A DNA stretch of 64,000 nt from Nemertoderma westbladi (taxonomy: Eukaryota > Animalia > Xenacoelomorpha): the NCBI GenBank assembly GCA_032718475.1, contig JAUCBJ010009163.1, forward strand, positions 1 to 64,000, in the 5' to 3' direction. Below, in pieces: positions 28,693 through 64,000 of this stretch. Made by a program: the position numbers and the translations under genes. Every line of letters begins with the position of its first letter. Within the stretch, counting starts at the first letter, position 1. Below the pieces are notes generated by a model. The model worked only from the letters and a program-made list of their open reading frames with translations. It had not been told where the DNA came from and searched no databases.

Positions 28693-28831
28693 CTAAATCA
28701 TTAATTTATTTCTTAAATATTTTTGTTTAATACTTTTGTTTGATTATTATTCACTATTGCCGATATAGTACCGCTCTGTTTAGGTATTTCATATTATTAG
28801 ATTTATTTTGGTACAAACAGCAGACAGTTCT

Positions 28832-35857: not shown

Positions 35858-37481
35858 GTATATATAAGTATAATTATAGACTAGAATTAATTACAGAATA
35901 CCGATATATAATTTCAGCTTAAATTTATAGAAATAAATATAATAAGCCTATCGTAAATACCGGTATGTCAATTATTTTAGAATAATTGAATTTCTGAATT
36001 TTAGGGGTTACTTTACTTTACTTTATTACCGTTATTTAAGCAGTAGTCCAACTGATATTAAGACCTAATTGTTGTATGACAGGCCTACTATTTTATAAAT
36101 CGGTTTGAGTTGATTTATAATATATATACCCGTTTAATGGGTTTTGTAACAATATTGGAAATAAATGTTATTATTTCTGGGAAGGAGTCACTACACAGAA
36201 GCTGTACGCTCTCAGTGAAGTGCTACTTGTTGGACACTACAACAAATAATTCTACTTGCCTAAGTTACTTATTACTACAAATTATGTACAATTGCGGGGT
36301 GAGATTACAATCTCTAAATAAACACAAAAATTACACGTACGAATTTTAGGGGTAATTTTACAAGGAATCTACAAACCAGCCTAACAAGGAGTTAGAATTT
36401 CTGGTTATTACAAACGGACAGGATACTTCGGTATTTGAAAATAATAAAGCAGTAGTAAATATATTGCGTTTTCCAGATAGGAAAAATACCACCGTCTGAC
36501 GAATTATAGCCGTAGCGCTATAAGTACTACATTATGTACCCAGAGTGTTCCTACCTAGAAGTTAATTACCGCAGCCTACTATAGCTAACGTGCCTATTAA
36601 CCACTTTACAACACAAATATTTACATTCGGAAAGCACTGTACACTAAACCCTAAATTAGGTACAAGTACTTATACAACAAATAACCAGCGGTTAAAAATA
36701 CTTGTACAGCTAAAAGAACCACGGTATCTGCCGGAGTGACCAGAGCATAAAATCACCAGTCTTTACCTACGCCGAACAGCCCTGATGTAGTACCGGGGTT
36801 AATTTAACTATAACGGTATGTATAACAAGCACAATTACTGTAGGAATAAACTTGGGGGTATGTATGTTGCGAATAATCGCATAAACTCTGAATAATAAAT
36901 ATTACGCTACCCGTACAGACTACACAAACAAAATAAAGACCAAACGCTGGCAGACTACTATCAAGCCTAAATAAACTACAGTATATGCAGACTCCGAAAT
37001 GGTTAGTTAGTATGCGTTCTAACCGAGTAGTACAACTTATTCTTTCGGGGGGGGGGGGGGGGGGGGGGGGATTTACCTTACAGCACTGGATGCCCCCACG
37101 TTCCTAACTAGTACTTTATCGGACATACACTCTATACACACTGCAATCTCTTCAGACTTAACAACAGCCAGACAACAATCCAGCCTACAAATTATCTGTA
37201 CAATCTGAGCAGGCTTACACGCCTTCTGTTCAATATTAACTTACAGGTAAATAAAACTGACAGAAATAAGTAAAATCCCAATAAAAAACCAGGGCGGCCG
37301 TCCCTGATTAAATATCAAGACCTACCGGTATATAATTATCAAAATCGAATAATACTGCTGTACCTGTACTGCTGTAAGTACCGGTTCGGGTGGTTAGGTA
37401 GTCAGGCCTACTGGTTACTGGTCGACTGGTACTTTTCGACTTTATTGCCTACGTTGCAATAAAGAAAGCTATAACTGTTAT

Positions 37482-38811
37482 TGTTCGCGCTTTTAGACGT
37501 TTAGCAGTTTAACCTGCCAAATTTAGGTGTCTTCTAGGTTATAAATCGACTTTAGCCTATCACAAGTATTTGATACACATAAAGCTACATTACCGAAGCC
37601 AGCCTATGCGCGATCATTCACCCACGGTTAAGGGAGACTGGATTCGGATGCTCTGACCTTTTTGCGGTGTAGGCCTACTGTATTATTCGACTGATCGTTA
37701 ATATATAATCTCTGACAAATATTATTCACTTTCGGGAAATATTAACAGTTCCTTTAGGACGTGGCGCTCTAAGTATGTAAACAGAGTTATGACTTACACT
37801 AAACACAACGGGATGGCTAATGATTTACGTATAAAGCGCATTCTTTAGGAAATGCTTTGTTATCTATCACACTCATGCACACTACCGCACAATGCTGCAC
37901 ACTGATCTGTCGACCTTCACTAATTTTAATCATATATAAGGAGAACAGCAACTGACACATGTAGGGTCTATGAAATAGCATTCAATTCACTCCAAAACCA
38001 CTATAATGTAAGTCGCAATTGCTATATGTAACCGGTCTCTCTAACCTTCAGTATATCAAGAAGATTGGGGTTTTCTGATTATTCATCAATATTCTCCAAA
38101 TATAACAATATTCCATCAACTGATAACACTTAATAACCGACAGTAAATAGCAGTAAAATAATGTGGTGAAAGGTACGTATAGTTATGATATGATAAGTGG
38201 TAGATAGATAGACTAACAGTTATACGTTTCTATGATCAAAGCCGTTCTAATGTTTGGCTAAAGTCTGAAACACAGAATAATTCCACAGCCGATGTTCGGG
38301 GCTCAGGAAAAAAGGTAAACAAAGACCATAATGCATTGCGCGATTTCCCGGAGGCTTCTGTGCAAATAAAATGAAAATCGCTCTGATTGGTCGAGCCGAA
38401 CAAAGAACAAAGAAAGCTCTACGTGGACATATCAGCTGATAGATGTCGTCATCTGAACTACACTGTATTAAGAGTATTTTGGTGCATTGCGGCATAAAAT
38501 CGCTAGTTATGTCCGCTAAAGTACACATACAGAAGAAGTGGCTTTTTATGTCCACTAAAACACCTGCACAGTAAGGAAACTGCTTTTTATGTCCGCTAAA
38601 ACACCTACAGAGTAACTGTATCAAGAGTATTTTGGCGTATTGCGGCATAAAATGGCTTGTTATGTCCGCTAAAGTACACATACAGAAAAAATGGCTTTTT
38701 ATGTCCACTAAAACACCTACACAGTAAGAAAACGGCTTTTTATGTCCGCTAAAACACCTACAGAGTACTTTGCGGGGAAAATGACTAGCTAGATCCGCAA
38801 AAGCCTTTACA
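37482..38811 (-). repeat. 5' LTR of element B (1330 bp, extra 153-bp unit)
   Basis: Matches 1595-2763; tandem 153-bp units start at 38462 and 38615. Confidence 0.92.
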
Positions 38812-40347: not shown

Positions 40348-42890
40348 TTTGTACAATACTGCTACGTATGCGAAGAAGAAGGTAATTCAATCGAGAATTC
40401 CTGCTCCTCTTCTGGGATCGAGTTGGAACGTTGTACTGCTGATACTAACTTTCAGGGATGTTGGGTCAGTGAATTACTTATAATATGAACCTAATTTACC
40501 TTACATACCTTCCATTACACGAAGTAGGAACTTCGCGCAACACGTGTCATAAACTTATATTAAGTGTCAACTCGAAATAAGCAAAGTATAAGCAGATATC
40601 CGCTAATCACTTATACACCCCAAGCGGCAGACTGGGTTACTGCGGACGGTTTAATACCCCAGAAATACTCGGCCGTCGGCCTGGTGTCTAGAATATAGTT
40701 AGTTAGTTAGTTATTATTGACCTGCATGAGGTCCAATGGATTTAAATATACGCTTTTACTGACACTGACAGACCAAACACTCTCATAATATAAATAAGGA
40801 CCGGTTAAATGTTGCGAATCCTAAAAAGGTACCAGCCGCGGCACTCTTGAAAACATAAGAGAATAACACCAATCAAGATCAAAATAATGTGTATATACTA
40901 ATAGAGAACTCAAACGTTACGTACAAATAAATTAGTAATTAGAGTTAGAAAAATATATCGCTTACTTAATAATAAAGGTTCTAAATCAAAATACAATAAA
41001 TTACAATAAAATATCTAAATTTCTAACACTTAACAGTTCATATGTATATGTTTGGAATGTATTGGAACACTAGATAGTTCTGTGGATGGGGACGTGTATT
41101 CTAATGATAATCTATTTCTAAATTGGATCAATAAAAGGGCAAACGCAAATATCATTTGATTCAGATTGAGGCGAGCCACGCATGCAAATACGTCGTTCAT
41201 AAAGGACTCGATTCCATCTCCCTATTTCTACACTTTGATTGGTCGACCGAAGACGGAACCTGGTCCGCGCTTTGCGATGTGATTCGTAGATATCCAGCTG
41301 CGGCCGTGTATAAATGGTTGACGTCACGAGTGAAGGATTAAATGATTTGTAAACCATATTTCTAGTTGATCCGCTTATAAACACTCGGTTGTGTAGTTCG
41401 GACAGCTTCGTGTGGGTTGGGTCATCTTGTCAGTTTAAATGGCCTGAGATGACCCTACCCATTGGGGTCCAGCTTCGCAAACGAACTCAATCACGAAAAC
41501 TGCGGGTCTGTGCAAGTTTCTCCTAGCCTTGAGTTTACCCAAAAGATTTCGTTGGCTAGTCAGAAACATTGGCCAAGGCTCCCGTTAACCAGATTCAATG
41601 TACAATAATATCTCTATAAGTGTTGTTACGCACACATAAAGCAGCGCACAGTAGATTATTGTAATGTACTACAATAGCGGGAGCGGCGTTGCCTATCTAC
41701 GTATCAGATCCATAACAGATTGCCGATATCAATGTGGCACAAAAAACTTTCAGTTTCACACCTGTACAAATTGTTAAATACATTTATATCGTGTTTCTCA
41801 TCAGAAGTGATTTTACCAATAACCATAATTTTGTTTTTTTATGGTTTATAATCATTCCCGACTATGCACAAAAATCTAATAATATACCACGTTTTTTTAC
41901 ACAACGGTCACGGCTGGTTGCTAAAATTATAGAGTCATCGATAAGAATTAGAGAGTGCAGCGAATCTGAAAAGCCATCTGGGGTACAAAGCCGTAGCATT
42001 CGTACATATAAACGGGTTTATACATAAAGGTGAATAAAAAACAGCTACTGGGTGAAGCTTGTAGAACTCCTATGTTGGTGCTTATATAAATGGAACCTAG
42101 AATACTCTTAGCGCCAGAATATAAACATACAATGTGGTAAGCATCCTGCCACCGCATCACTGGAGCTTTTGCCGATGTAAATTCCAAGTTAAATATTATA
42201 TAGCCGCCTCCGCTTTACAGGGCATTTCGTTCGCCATGAAGACCAACCAGTGCATAATCTTGTGCTTTGGCAGCCCCATGGAGAAAATAATCATGGTTGA
42301 CTAGACAGCCAATGACTTTCTTGAAAAGCCTCTTAAAGGACACTTTCCTTGAAGATGCGGATGATCTTGCAAATATGATGTGTGATAGGGAGTTGTGGCG
42401 GCGCAATTTTATCGACAAGCCGGCACATTTGAAATTGTGCTAATAATTTGAGTGGACCTGATCATTAGGTTTAGTAATAATTAAATATACGTACATACAT
42501 AGATACATACATACATATACACCATTATGCATTGCATATAGTAGCAACTACATGTTTATAGTGAATAAATATTGAATAACTAATAATTCCCAGGTCGGTA
42601 AACGTGGAACTCTGAACGCCACTAGCGGAGAGGTGACTGTCGTCTACTACAGACAGTGCGGCGGTATCTGTACTGACCATTACGTTGTGCACGAGGGAAC
42701 TGTTGACGTCACTCGTTGCTATGAGACCTTCGACAAGAACGGAAACGCTATTGGATACGAGTGTTTGGCGTGTTGCCGGGGCGACCAATGTAATTCATTC
42801 GCATTCTCAGGAACAACCCGGACTGTTACGGAAACTAATGGAATTATTCTTTATTTTTTTGTGATGTTGATTTTCAATATTTCGCAGTAA
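40348..42890 (+). CDS. Host Ly6/uPAR (three-finger) protein, probably GPI-anchored; exons 40348-40464 and 42594-42890
   Basis: Canonical ag/gt phase-0 junctions join FVQYCYVC...C...C...GCW to VGKRG...CLACCRGDQCN plus a hydrophobic tail. The signal-peptide exon was not identified. Confidence 0.8.
40900..42420 (-). mobile_element. Decayed, 5'-truncated non-LTR retrotransposon in the LU-gene intron (clade unresolved, ends approximate)
   Basis: RT motif remnant IGVLQASPSSCFLF (41948-42187) and C-terminal TRFRLRS...EIGRWNR...ERRIC...CPF (41118-41384). Confidence 0.65.
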
Positions 42891-43740: not shown

Positions 43741-43777
43741 CATCACTATGTAGATTAAAGATTCATTATACAGTATA

Positions 43778-44693
43778 CACCATGTCCCAGAATATAGTGT
43801 CGTAATTCAGTGACACGGCCCCCCCCCCCCCCCCCCCCCCCTAATTTTTCTACAAATCTTAATGAGATTGCATGAAATTTGAAACAGAGATAGTTTCACC
43901 TCCCGACCACTGACTGGGTGAGCCAGAATTTTTATTTTTGCTTTCAATCTTTAGTTACAAGCGTTTAAAAAAGTGTCTCCAGCGATATTACACCAGTTAC
44001 ACCGCAGTTATTCTTCTACCTTATAGCTGTTTGTTGGTACCAATGGAAAGCTGGTCATGCAAGGATTCCAAATATGTAACACAATTTGAATTTCGTTGAA
44101 AAATAGCTGAGATATGGGCGTTCAAATGTTGCATGGTTTTGCACAGGCGCGAGGCTATTTTAATCTATTTTATAAATAAACCATATTCTGGAACATTTTT
44201 AAATGTATGAATAGCTACATAATAGTATGATTAAAAATGTAATGTTGCCCAGCTACGTATTTGGATAAACAAAATATTCCAGATTATGATGTATTTATTA
44301 AATAGAATAAAATAGCCTCGCATAGGTGCATAACCATGCAAAATTTGAACGCCCATATCTCCGCTATTTTTCATCGAAATTCAAATTGTGTTACATATTT
44401 GGAATCCTTGCAGGGTCAGCTTTCCATTGGTACCAACAAACAGCTATAAGGTAGAAGAATAACTGCGGTGTAACTGGTGTAATATCGCTGGAGACACTTT
44501 TTTAAACGCTTGTAGCTAAAGATTGAAAGCAAAAATAAAAATTCTGGCTCACCCAGTCATTGGTCGGGAGGTGAAACTATCTCTGTTTCAAATTTCATGC
44601 AATCTCATTAAGATTTGTAGAAAAATTAGGGGTGGGGGGGGGGGGGGGGGGGGGGCGTCACTGAATTACGACACTATATTCTGGGACATGGTG
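43778..44693. mobile_element. Palindromic Tc1/mariner-type MITE (916 bp)
   Basis: TA on both sides; termini CACCATGTCCCAGAATATAG / CTATATTCTGGGACATGGTG; inverted arms ~400 bp each; no ORF. Confidence 0.9.
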
Positions 44694-44816
44694 TAATGTA
44701 ATAGTAATTTATACTAAACATCATATCCTGCAATTGTTGTCGTTATTGAGGCGCCACCGACCCCCCCCCCCCCACCAAAAAAAAAACAAAAAAAAATTTA
44801 CGCAATGCCGGTAGGC

Positions 44817-45085: not shown

Positions 45086-45957
45086 CGCAACCGTTGCCAT
45101 AACGCGGTGTATCTGTCTGTGACCGATAATCATAAGAATGTAATTTAATGTGATAACTAACACACAGTGATATCTACTTAGTTACTAATAATTGTTCTAT
45201 AAAGGTTTTAATACTTGCCGCCTTTGATTGCCTTTATGAGACTTTATTTATTGCATCAGCTCTTTTCCTTTCGCCAGTAAATCCAACGGACGCCTGCGAG
45301 AATGAAGGGAAGTTGTAGCACATCGAGTGTGGGTTAGATATTTCCTTATGTTAGCGTATTCAATTCCGCTAGCAAGCCCCATAAAGTGAGCTTTAGGCAA
45401 TATTGGGAACACGAGGTTGATATCCAATATCAACCTCGTATCACCCCAATAAAGTGGGGACAAGAAAACCCCAGAGGACATACGCACAACAGGGGTCAGG
45501 GGTTACACCCCTGAGAGAGAGAGGGAATAACAGGAGCAACGGGAAACACTCCAGGGAAGGTAAAGGGGCGACAATTAGGATATTAGCCAATAGGGGGGAA
45601 GCATCGACTGGGTAGAGCAATATGGCCATCTGTGCAATATATTACCGGTCCATGCATTATTTCATTCACTTGTAGTAAGTCAGCTAGTTAGGACAGTAGC
45701 GGAACTCTAGTTACCGTCTCTGTCTCCGTCTACTGCCATACAATATATCATTTACTGGTACATTATACACCATTCTCTTCAACCGTGCTGTAACCTATCA
45801 TTGATTATACTATATGCATCGATCAACCAACAATCGAACTCTCTTTATATCTTTCACACACGGCGGGGACGCGTAAGCTAGAAACCAAAACCGGATAAAC
45901 CGGGATCCTCCGTAGATCCCGTCACAGTAACTAGAACGACTACTGCCTGGCTACAAG

Positions 45958-47492
45958 ATGAGCCGAATAGGAGAGACGACACCGCCGCGGACCCCGGACG
46001 GCGATCTAACGATCCGAGAGGCCACAACACGATGGTATAGGCCCACGACACCGGACCCATCGCCAAAGGGTGACCCGGTGATCCAACACGAGGGGAGCCG
46101 TCTACAACTAGAGGACGAGTCGGGAGGAGAGAGAGACGAGTCAACACACGACGGCGGTCGACGTGCCAGTGTCGCTGGCCAGCCACAGGCCGAGGGCGAC
46201 GGACGGCCCACCGGAACGGCGATGGTGGGGCCGCCGGTACGACGCTGGACCCAGAGAGATAGAGGAGATGTCAGCGATCGACTTCGACGGGCCTACAACG
46301 CGACCCGGAAACTACTTAAGGAGGCCAAAGAGGGGGCCCAGATAAACGAGGTAAACTTGAAGAAAAGACTAGGTGAGTCGAACGAACACTTTGACTATCT
46401 AAAGCGTTTTGGGCAGGGAGAACTAGCCAGCGAGAGAGCGAGAGGGGTTGCCACCGAACTGTTTGAACTATGGGAATGTAGGGGTATGGAACCTAGCATA
46501 GTGTACGTAGGGCCATACTTAGTCGATGCCCGGGGAATAAAATTAGTAGGTTGGAGGAAACCACAGGAGGGCGAATCCGAGGTTAACCCCGAGGATTCGG
46601 TCTCGTCGGTCGGAGAAAGTTCCGGAAAAAGGGGGGGGGGTTAGTAGGACCGGAAGGTGGAGGGAATCCATCACAACCGATAAGTCTGCTACATCCTCCG
46701 TAAAAGAAAGACGGGTGAGGGAAATAAATGCGGCGTGTCATCTTGAACTGATAGCGCAAGACCAGAGAGAAGTAGAGAGACAGTTAGAGGAGGGGAGAGT
46801 GCTATTAGAGAAAGAAATTGAACTTGTTAGAGAGACCGGAGAGAGGGCCGAGAAAGCCGCAAGAAACTTTAGGGAGTGTGAGGAAATAGGGAGGAAGGAA
46901 CAAGAAGAGCGTGAGGCGAGAGAGGAGTGTGAACGTAAAGATCGCGAGGCAGAACGAAAAGAGCGCGAGGCAGAACATAAAGAGCGTGAGGTGGCAAGGG
47001 AGGTGAAACGAATGGAGAGAGTTGAGAGAGAGAGGGATTTGGCCGAGCAGAGCGCGCGGGAGAGTCGGGAGAGAGCAGCAGAGGGGAAGCGTGTGCGGGA
47101 TGGTTTACATGCCCGCCTAGGGGGGCTTATTCAGTACCAAACCAAACAGAAGCGCAGACTGAAAATGGCCCAGATGGGGCTGTCAGAGAGTGACGCTGGC
47201 TCGAGTGCTTTCGAGGAGCCAAGGGTCGAGGAAACATTTATTAATACCCCACTTACAGGGACCGCACGACAGACCCGAGACTGGTGTAACCGTAAGGGCG
47301 GGGGGGTAATAATAATGATACAGTAGACAACGTTAATATTAATAGTACCGTACTAGATAATTCTAATCAAACCTTTATTGCAGGAAATAATATTTTGCCC
47401 GACAGTAGTAATTTAAATCCGAATGATTCTAATATTAATGTAGAAAATAATTCAAATAATTTAAATCTAAGTCCGAATTTACAAAATAATTC
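45958..47492 (+). pseudogene. N-terminal gag-like fragment of a fourth LTR element (D), interrupted by C
   Basis: Purine-rich ORFs 45958-46644 and 46715-47326 (PEDSVS motif, E/R coiled coil) broken at G-runs; an Asn-rich open frame continues ~47304-47492 up to C's LTR. Confidence 0.55.
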
Positions 47493-49202
47493 TATAGAAT
47501 TATATTCCCTAAATGCCGTGGATTTCCAAAATTTTATTTTATTCGAATTAACTTTGTAAAGATTGCTTTGAGTTCTCATTAGTATTGGTTCTATCTATTG
47601 TACATCTATCGGTCAAGTGGTTCAGTAGCTCAGTTGGTAGAGCGTTGGAAATTATAAGTGTAGTAGGTATCGAGTTCGAATCCTAGTAAGTGCGAATTAT
47701 TTTTTGTGCAGAATTTCAACTCATTTAAATTAACCGCTACAAATTAATTGCATTTATCTGTACCAATGAGGCTGTAGTTATTTGATTGTAACCAATGTCG
47801 TGCAAGTTATATATTAGCTGGACCAATAGCTATCTTTAAAACCTTGTTAGAACCCATAGAACAATCGAGAATTTTCTCGATTGATTGCGGCACAAATTTA
47901 GTATATAAAGGTGCGATTTCGTTCATTAGTACTACTATTCAATCAATCTCAATCTCACTTGCTGATCTACCTTAACTTTCTGTCTTATTTCAGATTACAT
48001 TGTTTATTGTATAATAGTTATTATATCTTTGTAATAAAAGTCAGAAATACTAGTCACATCTCAGCTTTTCTATCTGTTTCACTATGGTTTCGCTACGGTG
48101 AACAAACTCAGGGACAGGATGGCCAGCTAGAGATCGGGCCGCAGCAATGAACGGGAACATCACGGGAATGTAGACGAGAGACAACCCGCAATACCATTTA
48201 AAGTTATTCGCCCATCGCCTGAAAGGTTAGACAGCGTTCGATCCTTGCTACCTAAGTATAAGACCAAAAGATCAAAGGTAGACGTAGTGACACGCTGCAA
48301 GCCTAAAATTACATCATAGGGACTGTACTGTCTTGATCAGGGAAAACCGCAGTAGACCTTCATATTCCTACGGGGGGGAGGGAGAGAGCATAAGCAGATA
48401 CTAGTACGCAGATAGGACGTAGGCACACCGGTACAAGGCATACACATTGGTTAGGGTGCAGCAAACTGTACGCTTAACTCTTGCTAAGTACAGGTGTGTG
48501 TGCGACTATTTGCCGTACAACGGTGTCCAGTGCATTAGAACTTGTAGGCTAGGGGGGTTGCTGTGTTTTCACCTGAATTGGGATTGTACCGTTCAGGCGG
48601 TAGGGCAGTTTACGCTAGGCGCAAAATAAATTGAGGCTATCAGGGATATACTAACATCTACCGTGTCCCCGCCAACGCCCTAATAGGAAGTTACCCGGAC
48701 TACCTGGGTGACTAAAATTCTAGATAGGAGCCAGGATAGCTATTAGTACCCGTACGCCTACAGTAGTAAACTAACACATCTCTTCTTAGTATCAGGGACC
48801 TGGTACCTAAAATTGCCGAATTCTGGGCGTAGTATTAACCTTATGCCTGAATTTGAGTCCTGGAAATACGCAAGAGGGGAAGGAACCTTATCATTCGTGA
48901 GTATTGGACCTACAAGTTATAAAATTAGAATATTCGTAAAATGCACACCGTACCCAGTAATTATATATGTGAAGGAGCAAAACTGCTTTGACCGTTCAGA
49001 ATTAACACGCGCGCGTTAGAAATTATTTACACCTCAAAATATATAAAATTAACTTTCGTCCTTACTGCACTTTGCTCGCTAGTTAGACATCTCCAAATAT
49101 CTGCCTCTATACCTAGCTAGCGTCCCTTTGCCCAACCATATAAATCACACCGCGGCAAAGTATACGAGCCTCTTAGTCCGTCAGTGAGTCAGCCTGATTT
49201 TA
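47493..49202 (+). repeat. 5' LTR of C (minimum extent; true end not determinable)
   Basis: Near-identical to 62290-64000; CCAAT boxes ~47763, ~47792, ~47823 and TATATAAA 47902-47909. Confidence 0.9.
47619..47705 (+). ncRNA. tRNA-like Pol III unit in C's 5' LTR (A box, B box, T-run)
   Basis: TAGCTCAGTTGGTAGAGC (A box with intact D arm), GAGTTCGAATCC (B box), TTTTTT terminator; acceptor and anticodon stems do not pair. Confidence 0.6.
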
Positions 49203-50234
49203 GGATTCGCTGCGCGGGATTTGTTTTATCGAAGTTTGTCTGCTCGTAGACTGTTCTGCCTCACCGGTTAAAAGAGATCGATACTGCAATATATTCGCTT
49301 ACTTAGGGTTTACTGTTTTGGTGAGAAGGTCGGATTTATGATTTGATTTACAAACTTTACAGTAGGATATTGCAGGTATTGTTACCGTTTCTTCCGATAG
49401 TAGGAATAGGCGTATCTCTCCAATTTAGTAGGAATATGTTTTACTGAACTACGGTTCGGTAGGACTAAAGTTATTTGAAAATTTTGTATTTTGAGGTAAA
49501 AATTTGTATTTGATTAGCTAAGTGCTAATTTTTTGAAATAAAATTTGATTTGAACCGCGTGTAAAATATTTTTGGAATTGAATACCGGTGTTTAAAAGGG
49601 TTTAAATACCATATTGTACCGGTACAAAATTTTTCGTAAAGTAAAACCTAACTCTTTTGTTTTTCAGGATTCAGAACTCATTTCTAGACTGTAACGGGAG
49701 CAAGACCGTGTTTAGCAAGTTTGGGAGATAGATAACTCAACAACTTTGGTTGGGAAAATCGCGTTTCGTCCGCAACGTTAAAAACGGAAAGGTTCACGTC
49801 CGGTTTGTATCTGGGAATCTGTTTTTCTGGAGAATTATTGGAGTGGGTGAGTTTGAAAAGATGCATAAATAAGTTAGGCATTACCGTATTAGTTAAAATT
49901 ATTGTGGGTTCCACTGTCTCAAGTATTTATGCATTCCGTACGATTTCTTTGTTCATTGCTGAATTAGTCCGTATTATTGTATTTAATTTACCTTTTGATA
50001 ACGCATATCGTTATCCGATTTATTTGTTATAAAATTGGCCGCTAGGCTAATTTATTATATACTTATTCCGTGACATTTATTTGCTGTAAAATTGGCCGTT
50101 TAGGCTAATTTTATCCATCTGCTATAAAATCGGCCGGTAGGCTAATTTTATATGACTGTAATTAGTACCGTTTTATACAAATACGGTAAACTCGATACTT
50201 TGACACTCACTTCACTTGACTTACAACTACCGAA

Positions 50235-53200
50235 ATGAGTGACAAACAAGACTATACGAAGAATACACAAACCGACTATGACTCATGTGACGCGGATAAG
50301 TCAGCAGCGGAAGAACCACAGGGGAAGACTCGCGAGCCTACCGAACCTACACCGTGCGCGTCACCAGTACATCCAACGGGAGTACCGGATGCCGTAGTAC
50401 GAGGCGACGGCAGGACCGAGGACTTTCTAACTGTTCCGCAACCTAGATATAGGGAAACGGACATGGTAAGTTCAGCAGGAAGCACAGAAAGTGTGGTTAG
50501 AAGCGTCGGAGGATATATGGCGCATATAACCAGGAGTATTGGGGAAGGCCAACGCATATTAGACGAGTTGACCGCTCCGATGTCTCGATTCGAGTTCTAC
50601 ACCCTCCAGGTTAGAGTACAGAGTAAAGTATATAAGTCCGTAGATAATCTAGTTGGCCTACAAGATCTAGCTAGACAGAGACAGGACATGGATACTCAAC
50701 TTAGAATCCTCGAGAAACTAATGATCACTAGAGAGAAACTGATTCAGTTTAAGTCGACGATTAGACAGATACAACAGGAACAAGCGGACCAGTTGTTAGG
50801 TGAGTCAGTTTCGGACGAATTATTACAACCCGAGGAAGAACAGGAACTGTACCGACTGGATGGACAATTAAAACACCTGACGGACCACTTACGCATGTGC
50901 GGCGAAGACGTCGGCGATTTGGAAACCGTGCCGGAATACACGAGGGAAACTTCACTCGCACAAATCGAATCGGCACCGGGAATACTAAATCAATCATTGG
51001 TAAGTATTCGTAGCGAAATCTGCGAGGGAAGTATAGTCACGTCAGAAGTTGCTCGACAACAGCAGCAGTTCTACAGACAGCAACACGAGATGGAAGAACA
51101 AGCTCAACTTCTAATGATACAAACAGCAGTAGAGGAAGAGAAAATACGTGTTGCGAATGTAGCGAGAATCTCTCATCTGCAGGAACAAGCCGAACTCGAA
51201 GCGGCCGAAATGGAAAGGTTAGAGTTGGACATTGCCCAACAAGCGGCAGCGGCCGAGTTAGCGCAACGAACGGCAACAGCCGAGTTAGAGCGACAAACGG
51301 CAGCGGCAGCGGCAGCGGCAGCGGCCGAGTTAGAGCGACAAACGGCAGCGGCCGAGTTAGAGCGACAAACGGCTGCGGCAGAGTTAGAGCGACAAAGATT
51401 AGTTTCGGAAGCCAGAGTCGAGATGAAGACACGGCAAATAAAAGCCCAACAAGCGATACGATAAGCAGAGTTCGAGGCGCAACAACAACAAACGGAACAA
51501 CGAGAAAAGGAAGTTAAACTTCGTTTCGAACTTGAGAAAAGGGCGAGAGAATTAGCCGAAACCAAGGAAAATCTGGATCTTCTAGCCCGCGATCGATCGA
51601 TGAGATCCCGTGACGGACATGATTTGGACCAGTTAGAGGTAAGACATCGCCAAATTCAGGAACGGAAGAAGGAAGGAAGTGTAGGAGCACCCGGACGGGA
51701 ACGACAATTAGTAAAAGACGTGTGTCAACGATTCCCACAGGTAACTCATATGTTTGCACCGGTCACGACTAAGGAACCTGTTTCGATTGCTGGTAGCATC
51801 GATATCTCTCCTATCCATGGTGTGACGGAACACAGGTTTGTTATTCCGGACAAGTTTACACCGCCAAGAGCAACGTCGTCGCCTATTCCGAGAGTCAAGG
51901 TAAGTAACCCACCGATTACAGATCGTAGTAGTTTATTAGTCGGACCTGCACTACTGACGACAAAACAGGTGAGCACACCTTTGACACCTAAACCCGTTAC
52001 GCACTACGATTACCCAATGACATTTCGGCCTACAAGGCCTTTGGATTCAAACGCGGTCGTCCGACCACCGGTTCAGTTTACGTCGCAATCTACGACTTCG
52101 AGGAAGACTTGTGAGCCTACCGAACAACGGAGAACAATGGAAACGCGACCATTCAACCAGTTTACGTCGCAATCTACGACTTCGAGGAAGACTTGTGAGC
52201 CTACCGAACAACGGAGATCAGTGGACGATGTTCCGAAACGAGCCGTTAGAATTCGAACGACGCAACGGACGCGAGCACGTCGACCACCATATCCAGATGA
52301 TAGTAGTACTTCGAGCGAATCGGATTACCCGAAACGCGAGGTATTTAGAACAGGGGCGGCCGATGAATATAAACGCGAGCGTTCAGACAACTCCTTTGCA
52401 GACAATCCTCCACAGAATACACCAACACAGAAGGCGTTACAACCAACGGACGCAATTAGTACACAACAGTTCGCCGACATTCTGCGACCAGTTGTCAACA
52501 AGTTGGCTCAGATCGAGGAGCGTCTGGAGGAAGTTCAAACCGATAGTTCGAGGAACACCGAATTCGAACACAATAGACACCCGAAGGCACCACAAAGATC
52601 GGTACCTTCAAACCCCACATCGTATCAGGGAAAAGCGCCTAGAAGGGAGAACATCAACCAGGTTACCAACCAAGGACGCGAAACTCTGAACGTTGCCGAG
52701 GAGATAGCGAAATTCGCAGCCAGACAGGGATTGCCGGTACAACAACCACCGAAGTTCTCCGGTAGCTCAAAACACTGGCATACCTTCGTAGACTATATTG
52801 AATCCCAGATCGCCGTGTGCGCCTTTACATCACGAGAGAAGTTCAATTACTTGCTCCAAACGTTGTCAGGAGAACCTAAACGTTTGGCGGAGACTTTCGT
52901 CGGTGTACCAGACGCTTTCGAACTAGCGTACGATCGTTTGACTTCGATATACGGAGGTACAGTGAGTATGGCCAGGTCAGTAATAGAAGAACTCTGTAAG
53001 GGAGGGGCTATCACTAAACCCGTCGACTTACTAAAACTAGCTGACGAAATCAAGAACGCTATCACTACCTTAAGATCAATTGGACAACTTGATTACGGGA
53101 ATACCCCTACAGTCCTATTAAAGATAATAGGACGACTCCACCATCGACTTCGTCGGGAGTGGAGGAAGGTCGAATACCAGCGAGAGGAGCGAGGAGGATT

Positions 53201-56200
53201 CCTGAAATTAGAAGATGTGTACCTTTTAATATCCAGGGAGGCGGTAGTAGAAACTCGATCTAACTATACCGACCAGCACATCGTGGCAGAAGGAATCACA
53301 CTGCCATCCTCCAACCGACAAAAACCCCAGACAACATCCACAAAGACGGCCACTTACGCCACACCGACGGAATCACGACAATTCTCAGACAGTAATAGAG
53401 TATCTGCGCCCATTGGGACGAAACAGACGAGACAGCAACTCAGCACCGACTTCAACGGCTGCCAATACTGCGAACATCTAGGTAAGCGGTATATTGGTCA
53501 CAAGTTACGAGGTTGTCGACAATTTCGCGAGTTGAACTCGGAAGAACGACGGCTGCAGATACGGCCACTGGACTCTTGTTGGCGGTGTACGCGACACGGA
53601 CATGTCCGTAAGGATTGCCCAAACACCGACACTTGTCCATCCTGTGGACGCAACCACGACGGTCTGCTCCACACAGACAGCCACACGCCGACGAAACGCT
53701 TCGCCAGGGAACACCCGGAAGCAGCAGCGAGATGTGATGCGGCTTACCGAAAACGAGAATCGAAAACGACTCCGACTTTCGTGACCCATATAGAGGATTG
53801 CTTTTCAGAACAATCCGGATCGTCGGACGAAGAATCAGACGACGACGAATATTCTAATGGAGACGAACAACCGTCAATCGCGCTCCTGACCACTGACCAA
53901 CTGAAGGGATTCAGTGTAATCCCGATTAAGATCACTGGCACAAAAGGGAGTAAGAGGATTTACGCGATTCTAGACTCAGCCTCATCTCACAGTTACGTAG
54001 ATGAAAAGATAGCTGACGTCGTAACGGATCTCAGACAAGGTAAACACGTAAGTTATACAGTAAGTAGTATGCACGGCCAGCGTGCAATACCAGTGACACG
54101 AGTTAAGTTGGACTTAGACTCTCTTCTTCCAAAATCGCAACACAGCGAGAGGGAGAGGTCTTTGTTGCCCTTTAGAGATCTAACCTTTGCGGCCACGAAG
54201 GACTTTAGTAACCTACTGGGTCCAGTGCCGGAACAATCTCTGGAGGACCGTAAGTATTTCAGACACCTTGGTGTACCCGAATGTCCTGTCAATTATAGAT
54301 CGGTAGCAATGCTGATCGGGACGGACCAATTCAACCTACATCAGGTGTGGGAAACCAGACCGTCGGCAGTTGTAGCAGGAAACGCATACGCCTGCAGAAC
54401 GCCGATAGGGTGGTATACTCGAGCGCCTGTGCGCACACTAGACGTAAGTGACGAGGAAGACGATGTACAGAGTACATGTAGTTTATTGACTACAAATTCA
54501 ATTCATTCCTTTTCACACGACGTGAACCATACTACACTACAGTCGACAAAACATGACAGACGTGTAACTAGTATGATAAGTCACAAGGAGCAGCTAATCC
54601 ACATGGTGAGTTTAGAACTTGGGGAGAAGACGAGTCAGCTAGAGATTCCATCGACGACAGATGATAGGCTTGCGAGTCTACCTACCCCAACGACACCAAC
54701 AATGCCCGTCGATACAAAGAAAAGGACGACAGCGACAAAACTCAAGAAAAAACCGAAGGCGAAATGGAAGGATATAACTTCAAAGGTCAAGAGAGGAAGA
54801 CTTGCGAGCCTTTCTACACCAGACATATCGCCAGATGGTCAACCAGACACGTTACCAGACGATCAACCAGATACGTTACTAGACAGTCAACCAGGCATTC
54901 TACTAGACGTTAGTAATGTACTGACAAACAGTAAAGCCGCAGTTTCCCTAGTGGAGCGGCCTTCTATTGACAAACAACCAGATACGTTACCAGACGTATC
55001 GCCAGACACATTACTAGACAGTCGACTAGACACTAGTAATGTATTGACTAACAATAAAGCCGCAGTTTCCCTATTGGAGCGGCCTTGTATTGACAAACTA
55101 CCAATTTTGACACACTTGAGCAACCATAAGCACGGTGAAACCTCATGTATTACAGATGTGGGTAGTACCTACGCTAATGTAAATACAGGTGTTACTTTGC
55201 GCTCAAGAGACATACCGAACCTACAACCTACGGTGAAACCTGGGATTAATGTCGGCAGAAAATTAAGTTTACCAAAACCTGCTGACCCCATAGAGTTCAA
55301 ACCACCATTAGCGATCGACTTACAAAGTACCGACAATCAAGGTAAGAAGACAAAGAAGGACAAATTACTTGTAGACCCGGACGGATCAACAGTCAACAAG
55401 GGAATACTTACCGGCGGACCCGTGGGCCCTTCTAGTAATTCAAAACCTTCCAAGTTCTCCATTGACTTACCTGATGACGTCACAAATACTTATGTCGACC
55501 GTATTGTAAACCTAACAGATTCTTGGTCAAACGCTTGCCGAAAATTAGCGTGGATTGTACGTTTTGTACAATACGTTAAAGGCAAACGTGACTTTACACG
55601 TCGACTTACATTGGCTGAGATTGACAGGTGTGAGATTCAATTAATTCGCCATTACCAACTGAGATATTTCGCGCGCGAATTCACATCTATAAATCAAGGT
55701 CAACCAATCAAGTCGTCACCGATACTGAGTTGGAGTCCGATTATTTATAATGGCTTAATTTGTCATAAATCTCGGCTTCAAAACATTGACTTTAACACGA
55801 ACTTTAGGTACCCAATAATAATACCGCAACATCACGAACTACAACGTGCAATGATACTGGACGCACATTTACATCTGAAACACGCTGGAAGACACCACTG
55901 TCTTTCCTACTTACGTACTAGATTTGTATTAATTAGACCCAGTAAAGCATTAAGTTCAGTGACACGTACGTGTATTATTTGTAAAAAGGTACATTCTAGA
56001 ATAGGTACCCAAGAAATGAGTGAACTACCACAAGCACGACTTCAAGCATTCAGACCACCTTTTACAGAGACTGGAATTGATTGCTTTGGTCCCATACATA
56101 CTAAACGTGGACGTATACTAGTAAAACGCTGGGGACTGATTTTCACATGTATGTCCAGTAGGGCAGTTCACATTGAACGTGTGATGGATCTTTCCACCAA

Positions 56201-57002
56201 CGCGTTTATACTAGCACTGCGGCGATTTATCGCTAGACGCGGACTAGTAAAATGCTTGTACTCAGACCAAGGGACAAACTTTGTTGGTGCTCGGAATGAG
56301 ATTGCTAGAGCCTTTAAGAAATTAGATCATGATCAAATCTCGAACGAACTGCAACCTCACAAGATTGTTTGGAAGTTTAATCCTCCAGATAGTCCTTGGA
56401 GAGGCGGAGTCTGGGAGAGATTGATTAGATCTATAAAGACAGCCATGGCAAAGGTCATTCCAGTAAACCACATATTAACAGACGACCAACTGACAACATT
56501 GTTTGTTGAAATCGAGGCAATACTAAATACTAGACCAATAGTATTAGTACCCGATGACAAACAATCTCAGTTCGCTTTAACACCAGCACACCTGCTTATG
56601 CAGGCACCGACCACATTGACGCCGATTTCCATTCCAATGGAAAGCGATAGTTACGGGAGAAAAGCGTGGAAAATCACGCAACTACTGGCTAACAAATTCT
56701 GGGAAATATGGCAAAACCATTATTTGCCCTCTATTTCTGCCAGAACAAACTGGTATAATAACACCCGCGCATTAAAGCCGGGAGATCACGTGCTGTTGGC
56801 AGAAGTGAATCTAAAAAGACGCTTCTGGATAACAGGTGTCATTTTAGCCACACATCCATCTATGGATGGAGTGACAAGAACTGTGACGGTACGAACAATT
56901 GACGGTCGCACAGTAGACAGACCGACTCAACGTCTCGTACTTCTTGAAGAGACTCGTAACGAGTCTGGAGACTACAAATCTCCACCTAATACTAGTAAAT
57001 AA
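50235..57002 (+). CDS. gag-pol: Bel/Pao Gag-protease-integrase polyprotein of C lacking RT/RNase H; one in-frame TAA at 51462-51464
   Basis: 50235-51464 and 51600-57002 share a frame. Gag core, triple knuckle, ILDSAS protease, low-complexity linker, then DSWS, HHCC, GIDCFGP, YSDQG, WERL. No YxDD, LPHH or FSDAS motifs. Confidence 0.9.
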
Positions 57003-57660
57003 TTAGGAGTTTACAAATAGATTTCCACGTACCTGTACACCGTAGTAAGGACAGCGGTAGAATTCCATTGTCTTTATATGTGAACATTGAGGGTAGTACC
57101 CTTATGTGTCACATAGGAGCGGGATTTGTAGGTATAAGAAATGGAATTCTACTTGGAACTCACAATATTGAGACATTTTCGAAATTTTAGACAATCCATT
57201 TGGATTTGAAAAATTTTTAAAATTTTCTCCAGTGAATAGATTTCAGGGTACAGTCGGGTGGAACTTAAAATTAGAGAAACAAGAGAGGAAGACTTGCGAG
57301 CCTTTCTTAAAATTTTAATTAAATTTTACACGGTCTTGTTTCAATAAGTTACGTCAAAATAGACTCCCCTATATTTATTACTAACTCTTGACTGCTTATT
57401 TTCTGATAATAGTTTGGGATCAAAAGGTGAGTATTTTAGACTCACGGCCAGTTTAGCCCAAATTCGTTTTACTTCGGCAAAAAATTTTAGATAAGAAGCA
57501 GCGTGTCATTAAAGAAACCCTAGATCTTAGGCTATGGGTAGGAGGTTAGAGCGTTGTCGAAGCCCAAAGGGCAGACGAAACTCTCACGTCTCCTCACAAC
57601 TAACTACAAACTCTGTTGTATTCCCTCTAGTAGTAATGATTATGTAACTACACCCTAATT

Positions 57661-60600
57661 ATGGAGAAAGGGATACAAGGAGAGCCGAGATGGGGATATG
57701 ATATCCAAGAGGAGGCAGCAGCGCCATTCGAAAGATTTGGAGCCAAGGATTACACTATATTTGGTATAAAAGAATTATCGGAAAGTACAGCGAAACTCGC
57801 GAGAACTAAATATGACTCGAATGTATTAAAGAGAAGGCAAAACGCATTAAACGAAAGAATCGAAAGTTTGCGCCAAACCTTCAACGAACTTTACCCGTAC
57901 GATGCTTTGTGTGATACGGGAGACATTAGCGAAGACCCCGATACTGAAATTAGTCGTTTGTATCATACCATGCAATACCTAAAGGCGCACGAACCTATGC
58001 CTGCGGTACGCGATGAATTCGATGGAATGCATCTTTACAGACGAACTCGAGGGGACGATAGAGAAACCAAGGAAGCATTTTCAGTTTATAAACTTTATTA
58101 TCAATGCGGTTCTTGTATGCGCGAACAACGAAATGCGATTCCGATGCGTTTGAATAAGGAAAATCCCGAACCGATATTGGCGAGGTGTTCGAATCATCAA
58201 CAACTACGCTACCAGGAAGGAGGGTATCCTTTATCGAATCCATATCATTCATTTGCTATGACCGGACCAAAGGCGGGAGAAACTGTCATTTACCCACCTA
58301 AGGTTGTTGAACCCGATGTATTTGAACTTACGCTGGACGAGGCGAATCAGTCAACCCGCGAAAAGAAAGAAGCTCTTAGCCTATACAGAGCCTACAAGGC
58401 TTTCGAGAAAGGTGAGATGGAAGAATGGGGTGGAAGACTCGCGAGCCTACCTTGCCATTGGACGTCACACGATCAAACTTCAGCTAAGGAGATGACACCG
58501 GAAGTTTTCGAGAGCATAAACTTCGCTCAAAACGTTATTCAGAGACTACAGATTGCATCCCCGGAGAGGCCAAGAGAAATGCAACCGTAGTACTTCGTAG
58601 TACATAGTACTTCAGCTACGAAACCATTGAGTACGACACTCAATTTCCCTATTAGTACCAGTCCGACAGGATACGACGTACGAAATACCCATCGTGGATC
58701 ATCCAGAAATCATTTCAAACTTGGAGTTTCTTCCTGCAGTTGTTTTCAGCGATATGAGTAAGATATATGATTTACGTAGACATATTACTCAAAAGGTCGT
58801 GAACAACGTTCCACCTCATATCCAAGATTTTAAGGAACTGGATAGAGCTGGTGCCGACATAGCTCCGAGTAATCTGAAAGGATATCTAACCAAGACGATT
58901 CGTTTATGGATTGGAATCGGAACCTTCGAGTCGGATACAGATATTGCCGCAGATTGGCGAGGTAAGGTTATTCGTTTCGATGAGGATAAGGATATAGAGA
59001 AGATTTGGCAACCTTCGGAAGAATTGTTGGATGAATGGACTAGGACGTTTAGATCGTTTCAGGAAAACGGTTATATGTTTTACGATAACGAGGGCGGCAG
59101 TCATCAGCAGAGTTTGACTTCTAAGACTATACAGATTAGAGCGGCGGACGGAGTCCTGCACGTTTTCAGTAGACAGAGGAGCGACAAACGAATGCCGATA
59201 CCTCCAGCGAATACAAAGCGACACCATCTTATCACCGATATAGTAAAGAAGATGGACCAAGCTTGTAATATTGACGCTAGAATGTTACCGAAGATGGTAA
59301 GAAACATTATTTTAGATAAAACTGTTGTAAAGGTTGGATCAGGAGTAAGGGAGGATTTAATTAGCGACTTCGCCGGCATGACGGACAGCGATGACCGACT
59401 ACCGACACCATACGTCGACACTCGACCTCTTATTCTGTGGTCTATAGAACAGGGATATTTTCGTGAGTATAATACTCAGAAGACTGGAACTGGATACATT
59501 TCCTACCTGTTATTCAATTGGGATTATAAGGAAGGTAAAAGAAACAAGTATATTGAAACTTATGGAGAAGGTGATACTCCAGATATGAGTGAGTTTGAAT
59601 CACAGCTTAAATGGAGAGGATGCGTGTATTGGGCTATTACGTCACCTCCAAGAGCGGTCTTACAATATTATTTAGCGATAGAGTCGTCAGTGAATGTTTG
59701 CCTAATCGCCGACATTGTGTCTCGGACTCTCAAAAGACATCCACTTTGTCTCGGAGAAGATCATACGTTCTACATGGAAGGGAGAATTCGTACCGACGTG
59801 TTTAGACGATTCCTTGAACCCTTCTACAACTCCGACGCTCAGTGTAATGCCTTTACTCGAGCAGGATTTAGTATATTTCGAGACGTGTATCTTCGCTGTG
59901 CGGGATCTCTTATCGAAAGACCATCTATGTTTACATTGTTACCCTATGAAGGAGAACGTATTGTGGAAATTACGGATGAATCACGGCAGACGCGCGCGCC
60001 TATCGGTCACCTTGGTGATGAATTCGAAGTAACTACTACGATCGCCGACGATCCTTTAGAGGAACTTCTTGAGATAGAAAGGAACCTCCCGAAGAAATCT
60101 CAGACGGAGATTCGACAGCTTGAAGCAACAGATGCTATAGTTTGCATACAACCTTCAGAAACCTACCAACCCATAGACCCAGATGATTACGATTATAGTA
60201 TGGGAGGAAGCGCTCGACCGATTGGAGATCTTATATACGAACGAGTGTGGTACCCTGCTAATACGATGTGTAGTAAATGTGGCGTCGCTGGACATCATAT
60301 GGCAAAGTGCAGTGGAAAGCACATTACTACGACTCAGCTAATCTGTGGATGGTGTGGGGATCAAGGGTCTCATACCTTTTATACTTGCTGGAGATTTATG
60401 GCTCAATGTACTTACTGCAATATAAAGGGACATCGAGCATCTGAATGCCAACTTAGGGACATACCTTATGAACACGAATCTGTAAAACTCGTGAGGAAGT
60501 TATTTGATGAGTGGGAAGATTTAGCCGACGAACATGTATCGGCACAAAGAAGACGGTTTCCGATGAGAGCGCATCTCGGATTTTGGGCGGTAAATCCCCA

Positions 60601-61399
60601 AACGATGATGTCGGAAGGATATATCTCCGCTATGCCCCAATATGACGAACTTATCGAGGTTGTTGATATTTTGCCCCACGACAGCGGATTCCGAGTGGTG
60701 CGCGAGTATCTGTTACAGATTCACCCGGATAACAAAAACACGTGGAATTTTCAGAAAGTCGTAAATCGTATCACGTATGGTGAATTTGATCGTTTCCGAA
60801 CCGAAAAGCGGAATAAAGGAGCTTGGTTAACCGTCGCATGGGCGTACCGAGCCGCGTTTTACCATAAACGTATACGAGCGAGCGTATTCGAGGAAGAAGA
60901 GGTCCTAGAGGCGACGAATATATCAGCCACTCCGGTTGCGCCGTCTGCACGTCACCCTCGGGAGGACGGGCAGGGTAGGATCATACGGGTCCAGAAGGTG
61001 GGCCAACAATTGAAGAAAATTATTAATGTAGAAGAACGCAAGGGAGTTGAGCCGACTATTCGAGTTACTCGGGATACGGTATCACTTCCAAGAGAACCGG
61101 TAGGAGGATCGGGACATACACCAGCTGATCAACAGGGGGCGCAAGCTACTCTTGGGTCTGCGTCGTCCACTTCTCACGCGTTCCCAGACGTTCTACCGAC
61201 TGTAGTGACGACTGATCGGTCACGAGGAATTGGTCGAGGTTTTGGGATGCCAAATAGACGAATTTGTGAGGAAATAGTCGCACCGTCTCTTAACGTCCCA
61301 AGTAAACTAGTGACTCGCCCCATAAGTCCCATATCGCGAGCAAAGTCACCTGTGCGCAGTTTTCGAGGACGCGGCAGGGCTCGATCCACTAAGCGATAA
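57661..61399 (+). CDS. Accessory ORF2 of C: Zn domain (57661-58590) + DEDDy exonuclease and three CCHC knuckles (58694-61399)
   Basis: ExoI MFYDNEG (59075-59095), LPKMVRNIILDKTVVKVGSGVRED (WRN-type ExoII), YVDT, W...P...QYYLAIE (ExoIII-like); knuckles CSKC, CGWC, CTYC; basic RGRGR tail. Confidence 0.82.
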
Positions 61400-62289: not shown

Positions 62290-64000
62290 TATAGAATTAT
62301 ATTCCCTAAATGCCGTGGATTTCCAAAATTTTATTTTATTCGAATTAACTTTGTAAAGATTGCTTTGAGTTCTCATTAGTATTGGTTCTATCTATTGTAC
62401 ATCTATCGGTCAAGTGGTTCAGTAGCTCAGTTGGTAGAGCGTTGGAAATTATAAGTGTAGTAGGTATCGAGTTCGAATCCTAGTAAGTGCGAATTATTTT
62501 TTGTGCAGAATTTCAACTCATTTAAATTAACCGCTACAAATTAATTGCATTTATCTGTACCAATGAGGCTGTAGTTATTTGATTGTAACCAATGTCGTGC
62601 AAGTTATATATTAGCTGGACCAATAGCTATCTTTAAAACCTTGTTAGAACCCATAGAACAATCGAGAATTTTCTCGATTGATTGCGGCACAAATTTAGTA
62701 TATAAAGGTGCGATTTCGTTCATTAGTACTACTATTCAATCAATCTCAATCTCACTTGCTGATCTACCTTAACTTTCTGTCTTATTTCAGATTACATTGT
62801 TTATTGTATAATAGTTATTATATCTTTGTAATAAAAGTCAGAAATACTAGTCACATCTCAGCTTTTCTATCTGTTTCACTATGGTTTCGCTACGGTGAAC
62901 AAACTCAGGGACAAGATGGCCAGCTAGAGATCGGGCCGCAGCAATGAACGGGAACATCACGGGAATGTAGACGAGAGACAACCCGCAATACCATTTAAAG
63001 TTATTCGCCCATCGCCTGAAAGGTTAGACAGCGTTCGATCCTTGCTACCTAAGTATAAGACCAAAAGATCAAAGGTAGACGTAGTGACACGCTGCAAGCC
63101 TAAAATTACATCATAGGGACTGTACTGTCTTGATTCAGGGAAAACCGCAGTAGACCTTCATATTCCTACGGGGGGGAGGGAGAGAGCATAAGCAGATACT
63201 AGTACGCAGATAGGACGTAGGCACACCGGTACAAGGCATACACATTGGTTAGGGTGCAGCAAACTGTACGCTTAACTCTTGCTAAGTACAGGTGTGTGTG
63301 CGACTATTTGCCGTACAACGGTGTCCAGTGCATTAGAACTTGTAGGCTAGGGGGGTTGCTGTGTTTTCACCTGAATTGGGATTGTACCGTTCAGGCGGTA
63401 GGGCAGTTTACGCTAGGCGCAAAATAAATTGAGGCTATCAGGGATATACTAACATCTACCGTGTCCCCGCCAACGCCCTAATAGGAAGTTACCCGGACTA
63501 CCTGGGTGACTAAAATTCTAGATAGGAGCCAGGATAGCTATTAGTACCCGTACGCCTACAGTAGTAAACTAACACATCTCTTCTTAGTATCAGGGACCTG
63601 GTACCTAAAATTGCCGAATTCTGGGCGTAGTATTAACCTTATGCCTGAATTTGAGTCCTGGAAATACGCAAGAGGGGAAGGAACCTTATCATTCGTGAGT
63701 ATTGGACCTACAAGTTATAAAATTAGAATATTCGTAAAATGCACACCGTACCCAGTAATTATATATGTGAAGGAGCAAAACTGCTTTGACCGTTCAGAAT
63801 TAACACACGCGCGTTAGAAATTATTTACACCTCAAAATATATAAAATTAACTTTCGTCCTTACTGCACTTTGCTCGCTAGTTAGACATCTCCAAATATCT
63901 GCCTCTATACCTAGCTAGCGTCCCTTTGCCCAACCATATAAATCACACCGCGGCAAAGTATACGAGCCTCTTAGTCCGTCAGTGAGTCAGCCTGATTTTA
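62290..64000 (+). repeat. 3' LTR of C (partial)
   Basis: Begins TATAGAATT directly after PPT GGAGCGG; matches 47493 onward. Confidence 0.92.
62416..62502 (+). ncRNA. tRNA-like Pol III unit in C's 3' LTR
   Basis: Identical copy of 47619-47705. Confidence 0.6.

Follow-up and report, generated by a model that had tools for sequence, protein, structure and literature searches.

Mobile elements that carry a DnaQ-type exonuclease have been described before, and we report here a further case from a 64,000-nt stretch of the genome of Nemertoderma westbladi (contig JAUCBJ010009163.1; "the window"), which is filled by nested long terminal repeat (LTR) retrotransposons. Two of them, designated A and C, carry after the integrase a third gene with a predicted nuclease core of this type. 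Third open reading frames (ORFs) of the DEDDy type have been published for the bdelloid rotifer LTR elements Juno and Vesta and for Athena/Terminon elements (PMC5408684); the rotifer ORFs also appear in PMC6431247 and PMC5718144, and PMC6338049 cites the DEDDy domain as an accessory domain already known. These four papers, like PMC7797062, PMC3706591, PMC9587614 and PMC13524379 below, are cited from excerpts. DnaQ-type exonucleases have also been captured by the DNA transposons Dada (DEDDy) and KolobokD (DEDDh), for which DNA-end processing was proposed and the excerpts describe no knuckle array (PMC3706591, PMC9587614). Among cellular enzymes, RNase D of Trypanosoma brucei (TbRND) binds single-stranded RNA through zinc knuckles, and its overexpression depletes guide RNAs (PMC7797062). 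Bel/Pao elements are metazoan, and the profile of the International Committee on Taxonomy of Viruses gives them gag, pol and env only, with 4.2-10 kb in total and LTRs of 0.2-1.2 kb (PMC8742986), ranges that both A and C exceed. In env-bearing members (roo and mosquito gB-type; PMC13524379, PMC8742986) a third gene likewise lies between integrase and 3' LTR; these genes encode fusogens, whereas the protein described here has no hydrophobic segment.

Like ORF3 of Juno and Vesta as the excerpts present it, the gene reported here encodes a DnaQ-type nuclease as a third ORF after pol, with no membrane segment. One catalytic Asp of the rotifer protein is replaced by Glu ("DEED"), and here a Glu sits at ExoIII. 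The triple knuckle, the post-knuckle domain, the arginine-glycine (RG) tail and the N-terminal domain of 300 residues found here are not described in those excerpts for rotifer ORF3; a Cys-His-Cys motif is noted there for Vesta2/5 (PMC5408684). Purifying selection and a spliced contig were also seen here. TbRND likewise joins a DEDD nuclease to a following array of CCHC knuckles, called a very unusual combination in the excerpts of PMC7797062; it is a cellular mitochondrial enzyme with four knuckles and a canonical DEDD set, at 13% identity, whereas three knuckles and extra domains occur here, in a mobile element. This likeness is probably convergent. Unlike Juno and Vesta, the host elements are Bel/Pao. 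Juno and Vesta are gypsy-like. No Bel/Pao exonuclease was found in the literature searched, while Repbase, Dfam and the element sequences of PMC3118150 may hold such ORFs; the word "exonuclease" occurs 0 times in the main texts of PMC3118150, PMC13524379 and PMC5348765. What is new is that Bel/Pao is the host superfamily and that the architecture differs; the kind of capture itself was known. With a nuclease gene in the env slot of Bel/Pao, the rotifer case is not isolated, and the gene provides a far better test object, its frame being intact over nuclease and knuckles, its catalytic residues predicted, and its relatives bearing both canonical and variant active sites.

Organization of the third gene of element C

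The third gene of C and its parts are the following.

57661-58590, plus strand: upstream frame (ORF-X), with ATG at 57661 and conserved Cys/His residues
58631-61399, plus strand: open frame of the third gene, 922 codons from stop to stop, spanning the nuclease, the knuckles, the post-knuckle domain and the RG tail
59003-59848, plus strand: predicted DnaQ-type 3'-5' exonuclease domain (model, structure search, EXD2 profile match and alignment)
60269-60448, plus strand: three zinc knuckles, with spacings x2/x4/x4, x2/x5/x4 and x2/x4/x4
60461-60870, plus strand: post-knuckle domain with the motif (F/W)E-x-x-AD...G(F/A)(W/H), which has no family name
60871-61399, plus strand: tail of low complexity that contains RG; its C and A versions do not align

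An original prediction, made by a model from the letters of the window, had begun the frame at 58694. The frame is indeed open from there, but the codon at 58694 is GTG, the first ATG lies at 58754, and the gene probably starts about 1 kb farther upstream. All the motifs it quoted were located in the C frame where it had placed them (FYDNEG at 59078, IQIRAADG at 59129, KVGSGVREDLISD at 59330, VDT at 59414 and QYYLAIE at 59663). The knuckles begin at 60269, 60344 and 60407, and the RG repeats lie at 61223 and 61364. The triple zinc knuckle was recovered as predicted, but the middle knuckle (C-x2-C-x5-H-x4-C) departs from strict CCHC spacing and the first knuckle of A contains a stop; the best PDB profile matches of the knuckles were those of Air2 and Lin28. 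The RG-rich tail had been thought common to C and A, and this was not borne out, as tblastn gave no match between the two tails. By contrast, the post-knuckle domain, which shows 42% identity between C and A, is also present in the outside proteins P0003, P0004 and P0006 and in the metagenome fragment L001.

ORF-X of C shows 46% identity to positions 23882-24790 of A, and gave no match in Pfam, PDB or Atlas. In the C copy, a stop at 58588-58590 and a frame change before about 58660 part it from the nuclease frame. Since contigs from other copies vary in length at these two breaks, and since the ORF-X and nuclease homologies abut in A, the two frames are likely one gene of about 1200 residues that is broken in this copy. 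Three features had escaped the original prediction: the upstream half of this gene, its splice signals and the absence of reverse transcriptase (RT) and RNase H (RH) from C. An env identity of the third gene was considered and rejected: the hydropathy scan showed no signal peptide and no membrane segment (maximum 19-residue hydropathy 1.38 and 0.41).

Predicted fold and active site of the nuclease

A model of the nuclease core built from a six-row alignment had a predicted local distance difference test score (pLDDT) of 64.2 and a predicted template modelling score of 0.70 (single-sequence fold, pLDDT 30.9). In an exhaustive structure search its best match was a diDNase (Z 11.3, root-mean-square deviation 3.8, 167 residues aligned), and all of the best 50 matches listed were nucleases of DnaQ type or polymerases that contain a domain of this kind; the family labels of some of these are what we take them to be. 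Z scores were 11.3 and 10.8 for diDNase/NrnC, 10.8 and 10.2 for Nibbler, 10.0 for RNase D, 9.9 for WRN, 9.7 for trypanosome RNase D (PDB 7c42), 9.4 for Exd1, 9.0 for Egalitarian and 8.3 for EXD2. The cellular set comprising Nibbler/Mut-7, WRN, EXD2, Exd1, Egalitarian, RNase D, NrnC/diDNase and Rrp6 shares this fold (Z 8.3-11.3) at 9-17% identity, and none of its members has the domain set of the third gene. A DnaQ-type fold of the core, proposed earlier from its motif layout, is therefore well supported by the predicted model.

Foldseek had been suggested as a check, and DnaQ-type proteins did rank first (NrnC, EXD2, apPol and Egalitarian), but the best E value was 2.1e-3 and no match reached E<=0.001. 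A profile that included the outside relatives matched EXD2 best among PDB entries (E=0.0011, over ExoI-ExoII), with Egalitarian (0.21) and WRN (0.51) standing among unrelated weak rows. The proposed likeness to WRN and EXD2 is thus one among several tied ones: EXD2 was best by profile, but by structure it was tied or lower, with diDNase/NrnC, Nibbler, RNase D, WRN and trypanosome RNase D ranking above it. As the structural rows are tied, no donor family can be named. Atlas features placed the protein at 0.92 to a cluster with 50% PF01612 members, with 166 shared features, just below the usual mark. Pfam missed the nuclease, and DNA_pol_A_exo1, to which the original prediction had pointed, gave no match at E 0.1; NCBIfam (best E 0.038) and a single-sequence PDB search missed it too, and the viral fold library contained no match at E<=0.001.

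Counting residues from 58694, the predicted catalytic residues are D131 (59084), E133 (59090), D221 (59354), Y326 (59669) and E330 (59681). D131 and E133 of ExoI lie at the end of the first model strand (E42-48) and align to the D-C-E of EXD2, and D221 of ExoII aligns to the Asp of EXD2 KVGVGCSED. The D-x-E of ExoI, the D of ExoII and the Y-x3-D/E of ExoIII are kept in all five homologs at about 25% identity. The acidic residue of ExoIII is Glu in C (Y326-x3-E330), A and P0006, in agreement with the replacement noted earlier, and Asp in P0003 and P0004. C has Y-x3-E in place of the strict DEDDy Y-x3-D, and because of this Glu the nuclease is, judged by its motifs, a DEDDy-derived variant and no strict DEDDy member.

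Conservation and selection of the third gene

Element A and its version of the gene lie upstream of C in the window.

11342-35857, plus strand: element A, with gag, protease, RT, RH and integrase containing stops, a third gene and an inserted RT-type ORF
23882-27219, plus strand: third gene of A, whose homology extends over ORF-X, the nuclease, the knuckles and the post-knuckle domain, and which contains frame changes and a stop

The frameshifted homolog that had been claimed for A was recovered as three pieces of 33-44% identity to the C frame (tblastn, joint E 3e-151); frame changes near 25230 and near 26070 break it up, as does the stop in the first knuckle. Between C and A, identity was 49-58% in the nuclease, 49% in the integrase, 45% in the protease, 43% in gag and 29% in the linker, so the nuclease is as conserved as the integrase. 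Neutral evolution had been named beforehand as the outcome that would speak against the nuclease claim, and the pattern found was that of selection: the proportion of differences at silent sites (pS) was 0.82-0.98, that is, saturated, and at replacement sites (pN) 0.30-0.36, with a pN of 0.34 in the integrase. Variation among copies was taken from the 40 differences with the best support out of 153 single-base differences among public-run copies, of which 39 could be classified and one fell between frames. In the nuclease frame 16 of 21 variants were silent (expected fraction at most 0.33, p=6e-5), as were 13 of 18 upstream of it in ORF-X (at most 0.33, p 8e-4), in a variant list chosen by support and with nine of the upstream ones crowded into 31 nt of one divergent contig. 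These results indicated that the third gene is real and selected.

Relatives outside the window

A full HMMER scan of 1.84 billion protein representatives returned five matches. Two of these (P0002 and P0005) were dropped, as they matched by the knuckles only. The other three (P0003, P0004 and P0006), which are single-member clusters from ENA assemblies, share the whole layout of nuclease, acidic linker, knuckles and post-knuckle domain; P0003 and P0004 have three knuckles, and P0006 has two by pattern and a divergent third. A profile of these three proteins scored 66.4 bits on the nuclease region of the window protein, whereas neither 300 shuffles nor the reversed sequence gave more than 3.9 bits; as the three had been found with the window protein, this test excludes chance and is not one of independence. 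No close cellular homolog was found among the 1.84 billion representatives. Word-index protein searches yielded nothing new among 4950 candidates, and P0004 itself as the sole find among 7996 and 6230. Three scans of viral contigs contained no relative of the third-gene protein; of two metagenome scans, one contained none and the other L001 alone, a short 3' fragment with knuckles, post-knuckle domain and an RGG-rich terminal tail.

A candidate spliced message

Two splice signals flank the joint seen in one contig of public run X1.

49846-49852, plus strand: splice donor G|GTGAGT in the C leader, the best-scoring leader donor by a crude score
57600-57630, plus strand: branch point CTAAC, pyrimidine tract and TAG acceptor, with 31 nt between this site and the start codon at 57661

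The X1 contig joins 49845 to 57630 with GT..AG ends; the joint was absent from runs X2, X3 and X5. The acceptor rule fired at five places in the 13-kb interior of C, two of them at the 57600-57630 site. In A, an acceptor-like CTAAC..TAG lies 56 nt before the third-gene ATG, below the pyrimidine threshold, and no G|GTRAG donor was found in the leader, where the best candidate was GGTTAGT at 14231. X1 showed 166 A>G against 87 T>C places, compared with 110/99, 122/109 and 32/32 in the other runs, an excess that would fit an edited RNA library. Most of the excess came from one LTR contig, in a dense cluster at 48555-49255, as in ADAR hyper-editing. The third gene is likely made from an env-like spliced message and is probably expressed.

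The Bel/Pao setting of the gene

The remaining parts of C are listed below.

47493-49202, plus strand: 5' LTR of C, 99.8% identical to 62290-64000 over 1711 nt, its end not fixed
50220-57002, plus strand: gag, protease and integrase of C, from Pfam, with an in-frame stop at 51462-51464
62290-64000, plus strand: 3' LTR of C, which runs past the last position of the window

Pfam detected DUF1759 (5e-11), Integrase_H2C2 and DUF5641 (1e-20) in C, where Peptidase_A17 was not detected, and DUF1759 (1e-9) and Peptidase_A17 (4e-37) in A; these matches mark both elements as Pao-type. DUF1759, Peptidase_A17 and DUF5641 are what we take to be markers of Bel/Pao, with its order protease-RT-RH-integrase. 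By these domains A and C are Bel/Pao (Belpaoviridae) elements and the third gene follows the integrase, as the original prediction had it when it spoke of a Bel/Pao element with a nuclease in the env position. No RT or RH was found in C with the RT-RH region of A as query (best E 7); repetitive filler (54714-55500), covered by all four public runs examined (X1, X2, X3 and X5), stands in their place. One X1 contig departs from the window sequence at 54714, possibly into an RT-bearing relative. The C family looks young, to judge by its LTRs (99.8%), and varied across runs. The C LTR seems to start with TA, not TG, at 47493; its end and the target duplication of C fall beyond the window. Its U3 part shows a tRNA-like A-box and B-box (47620-47690 and 62417-62487), for which ARAGORN and Rfam made no tRNA-like call.

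Possible functions of the third gene

The third-gene protein is, in our judgement, quite probably an active nuclease of predicted DnaQ-type fold that acts on RNA. We tentatively propose that it is encoded by an accessory gene that a Bel/Pao lineage expresses from a spliced RNA of env type, that its three zinc knuckles would hold on to single-stranded RNA and pass the 3' end into a two-metal site of DnaQ type, and that the nuclease would shorten or degrade small silencing RNAs of the host or the precursors of these. Its RNA substrate and knuckle-guided feeding are suggested by analogy with trypanosome RNase D and Nibbler, and the small-RNA target is the least supported part of the proposal. Nibbler acts in the trimming of PIWI-interacting RNAs (piRNAs). 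The separate message, together with retention of the gene in an RT-less family, would point to action in trans. An attack on small RNAs, if true, would explain how LTR elements in animals withstand control by piRNAs. A wider form of the proposal, which we consider rather unlikely, would see here a widespread and unnamed retrotransposon ribonuclease family (DnaQ, triple knuckle and new domain), spliced in place of env, degrading host piRNAs or small interfering RNAs and forming a convergent twin of the trypanosome guide-RNA nuclease; the gene would then be an enzymatic weapon of LTR retrotransposons against silencing, of enough value to be kept by an RT-less family.

Several observations weigh against the proposed attack on host small RNAs. 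The activity and substrate would follow from prediction and analogy, with moderate model confidence and a six-row alignment; ExoIII has Glu instead of Asp in C, A and P0006; and the inactive DnaQ-fold RNA binders Exd1 (Z 9.4) and Egalitarian (Z 9.0) are among the structure matches listed, as are DNA-acting enzymes (diDNase and polymerase proofreading domains) in the top rows. The splice joint is a single contig with 29 letters on its short side, from a run labelled "DNA?" by guess. RT-less C keeps gag, protease and integrase too, so retention is not specific to a role in trans, and a domain that evolves slowly is as compatible with a part in replication as with an arms race.

Ranked second is a possible though somewhat unlikely alternative in which the active exonuclease would serve the element's own replication cycle: attached through its knuckles to genomic RNA in the particle, it would trim a primer, the 3' end of the RNA or the ends of the cDNA, or would proofread for RT. 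The fold and conservation evidence is the same for it, and conservation at the level of the integrase suits a core step. Right after the LTR end of A no TGG-type tRNA primer site is present, so priming may be unusual, but A gives no more than a weak signal of self-priming (9 nt, against a background of 3% per position). Processing of 3' ends has been proposed for the rotifer and Dada nucleases in the excerpts of PMC5408684 and PMC3706591, but the description of Bel/Pao elements in PMC8742986 lists gag, pol and, in some of them, env, so that their replication needs no such enzyme. Moreover, the nuclease is not fused to Gag-Pol and seemingly comes from a separate message, and proofreading in particular is weakened because C, lacking RT and RH, has no RT to proofread. 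If trimming of replication intermediates were true, an unrecognised step of Bel/Pao replication would be at hand.

A catalytically weak or dead RNA-binding adaptor, comparable to Egalitarian, Exd1 or Cer1 CERV, could instead export, localise or protect unspliced RNA. The ExoIII Glu, the presence of Egalitarian and Exd1 among the structural matches, the RG tail and a spliced accessory message, as with Rev-like proteins, would all suit an adaptor; the Cer1 CERV protein is reportedly a Rev-like comparison for such a message. Dead DnaQ-fold derivatives usually lose their catalytic residues. Here all five homologs retain the Tyr and an acidic residue at each of the four positions, two of them with canonical Asp, and we regard the adaptor as clearly unlikely. 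Still less credence is given to a Mut-7/Nibbler-like factor that would aid small-RNA silencing and so limit the element or its competitors, or benefit the host: Nibbler is among the top structural rows and the idea was raised in the excerpts of PMC5408684, but self-limiting elements should, according to the same excerpts, be out-competed, and family C looks young and varied. Finally, the reading of the third gene as a neutral passenger captured from the host is largely refuted, for even though both window copies are broken and the excerpts of PMC5408684 report rotifer third ORFs (env- and GDSL-like) without departure from neutrality within the genome, the saturated silent sites with pN equal to that of the integrase, the silent excess among copies, the conserved position of the splice acceptor and the lack of a close cellular homolog among the protein representatives scanned all speak against it.

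Other features of the window

The LTRs of A are 2.3 kb long and 98.8% identical, with TG..CA ends, and A is flanked by a 5-bp target duplication (GTATA). Nine nucleotides just past its LTR (13644-13652) are complementary to an LTR stretch (12570-12578), which chance would give at 3% of leader positions; no split match of 10-14 nt that would indicate self-priming was found in A besides this single 9-nt complement. Inside A, at 28784-33170, an RT-type ORF of 1234 codons with a weak RVT_1 match is followed by a Cys/His and endonuclease-like frame, and a 17-nt tandem array (27704-28365) precedes this inserted ORF. A third Pao-type element, B (2790-11098, minus strand), has gag and protease, no RT and short ORFs. 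The domain of ORF-X could be traced weakly in B (E 0.006, among three frames), where no nuclease match was found, and an LTR-like segment of B recurs at 37474-38614. In all three elements an in-frame gag stop lies in or just past the coiled-coil N-terminal part (15787-15789, 51462-51464 and 9515-9517), which may reflect decay or read-through. Gag-like coiled-coil fragments of another element, seemingly interrupted by C, lie at 45931-47326. A long inverted repeat at 43769-44700, with 381-nt arms of 95% identity, resembles a miniature inverted-repeat transposable element or a foldback element. A Cys-rich frame with a hydrophobic tail at its end (42576-42890) presumably resembles an exon of a host gene of the Ly6/uPAR type.

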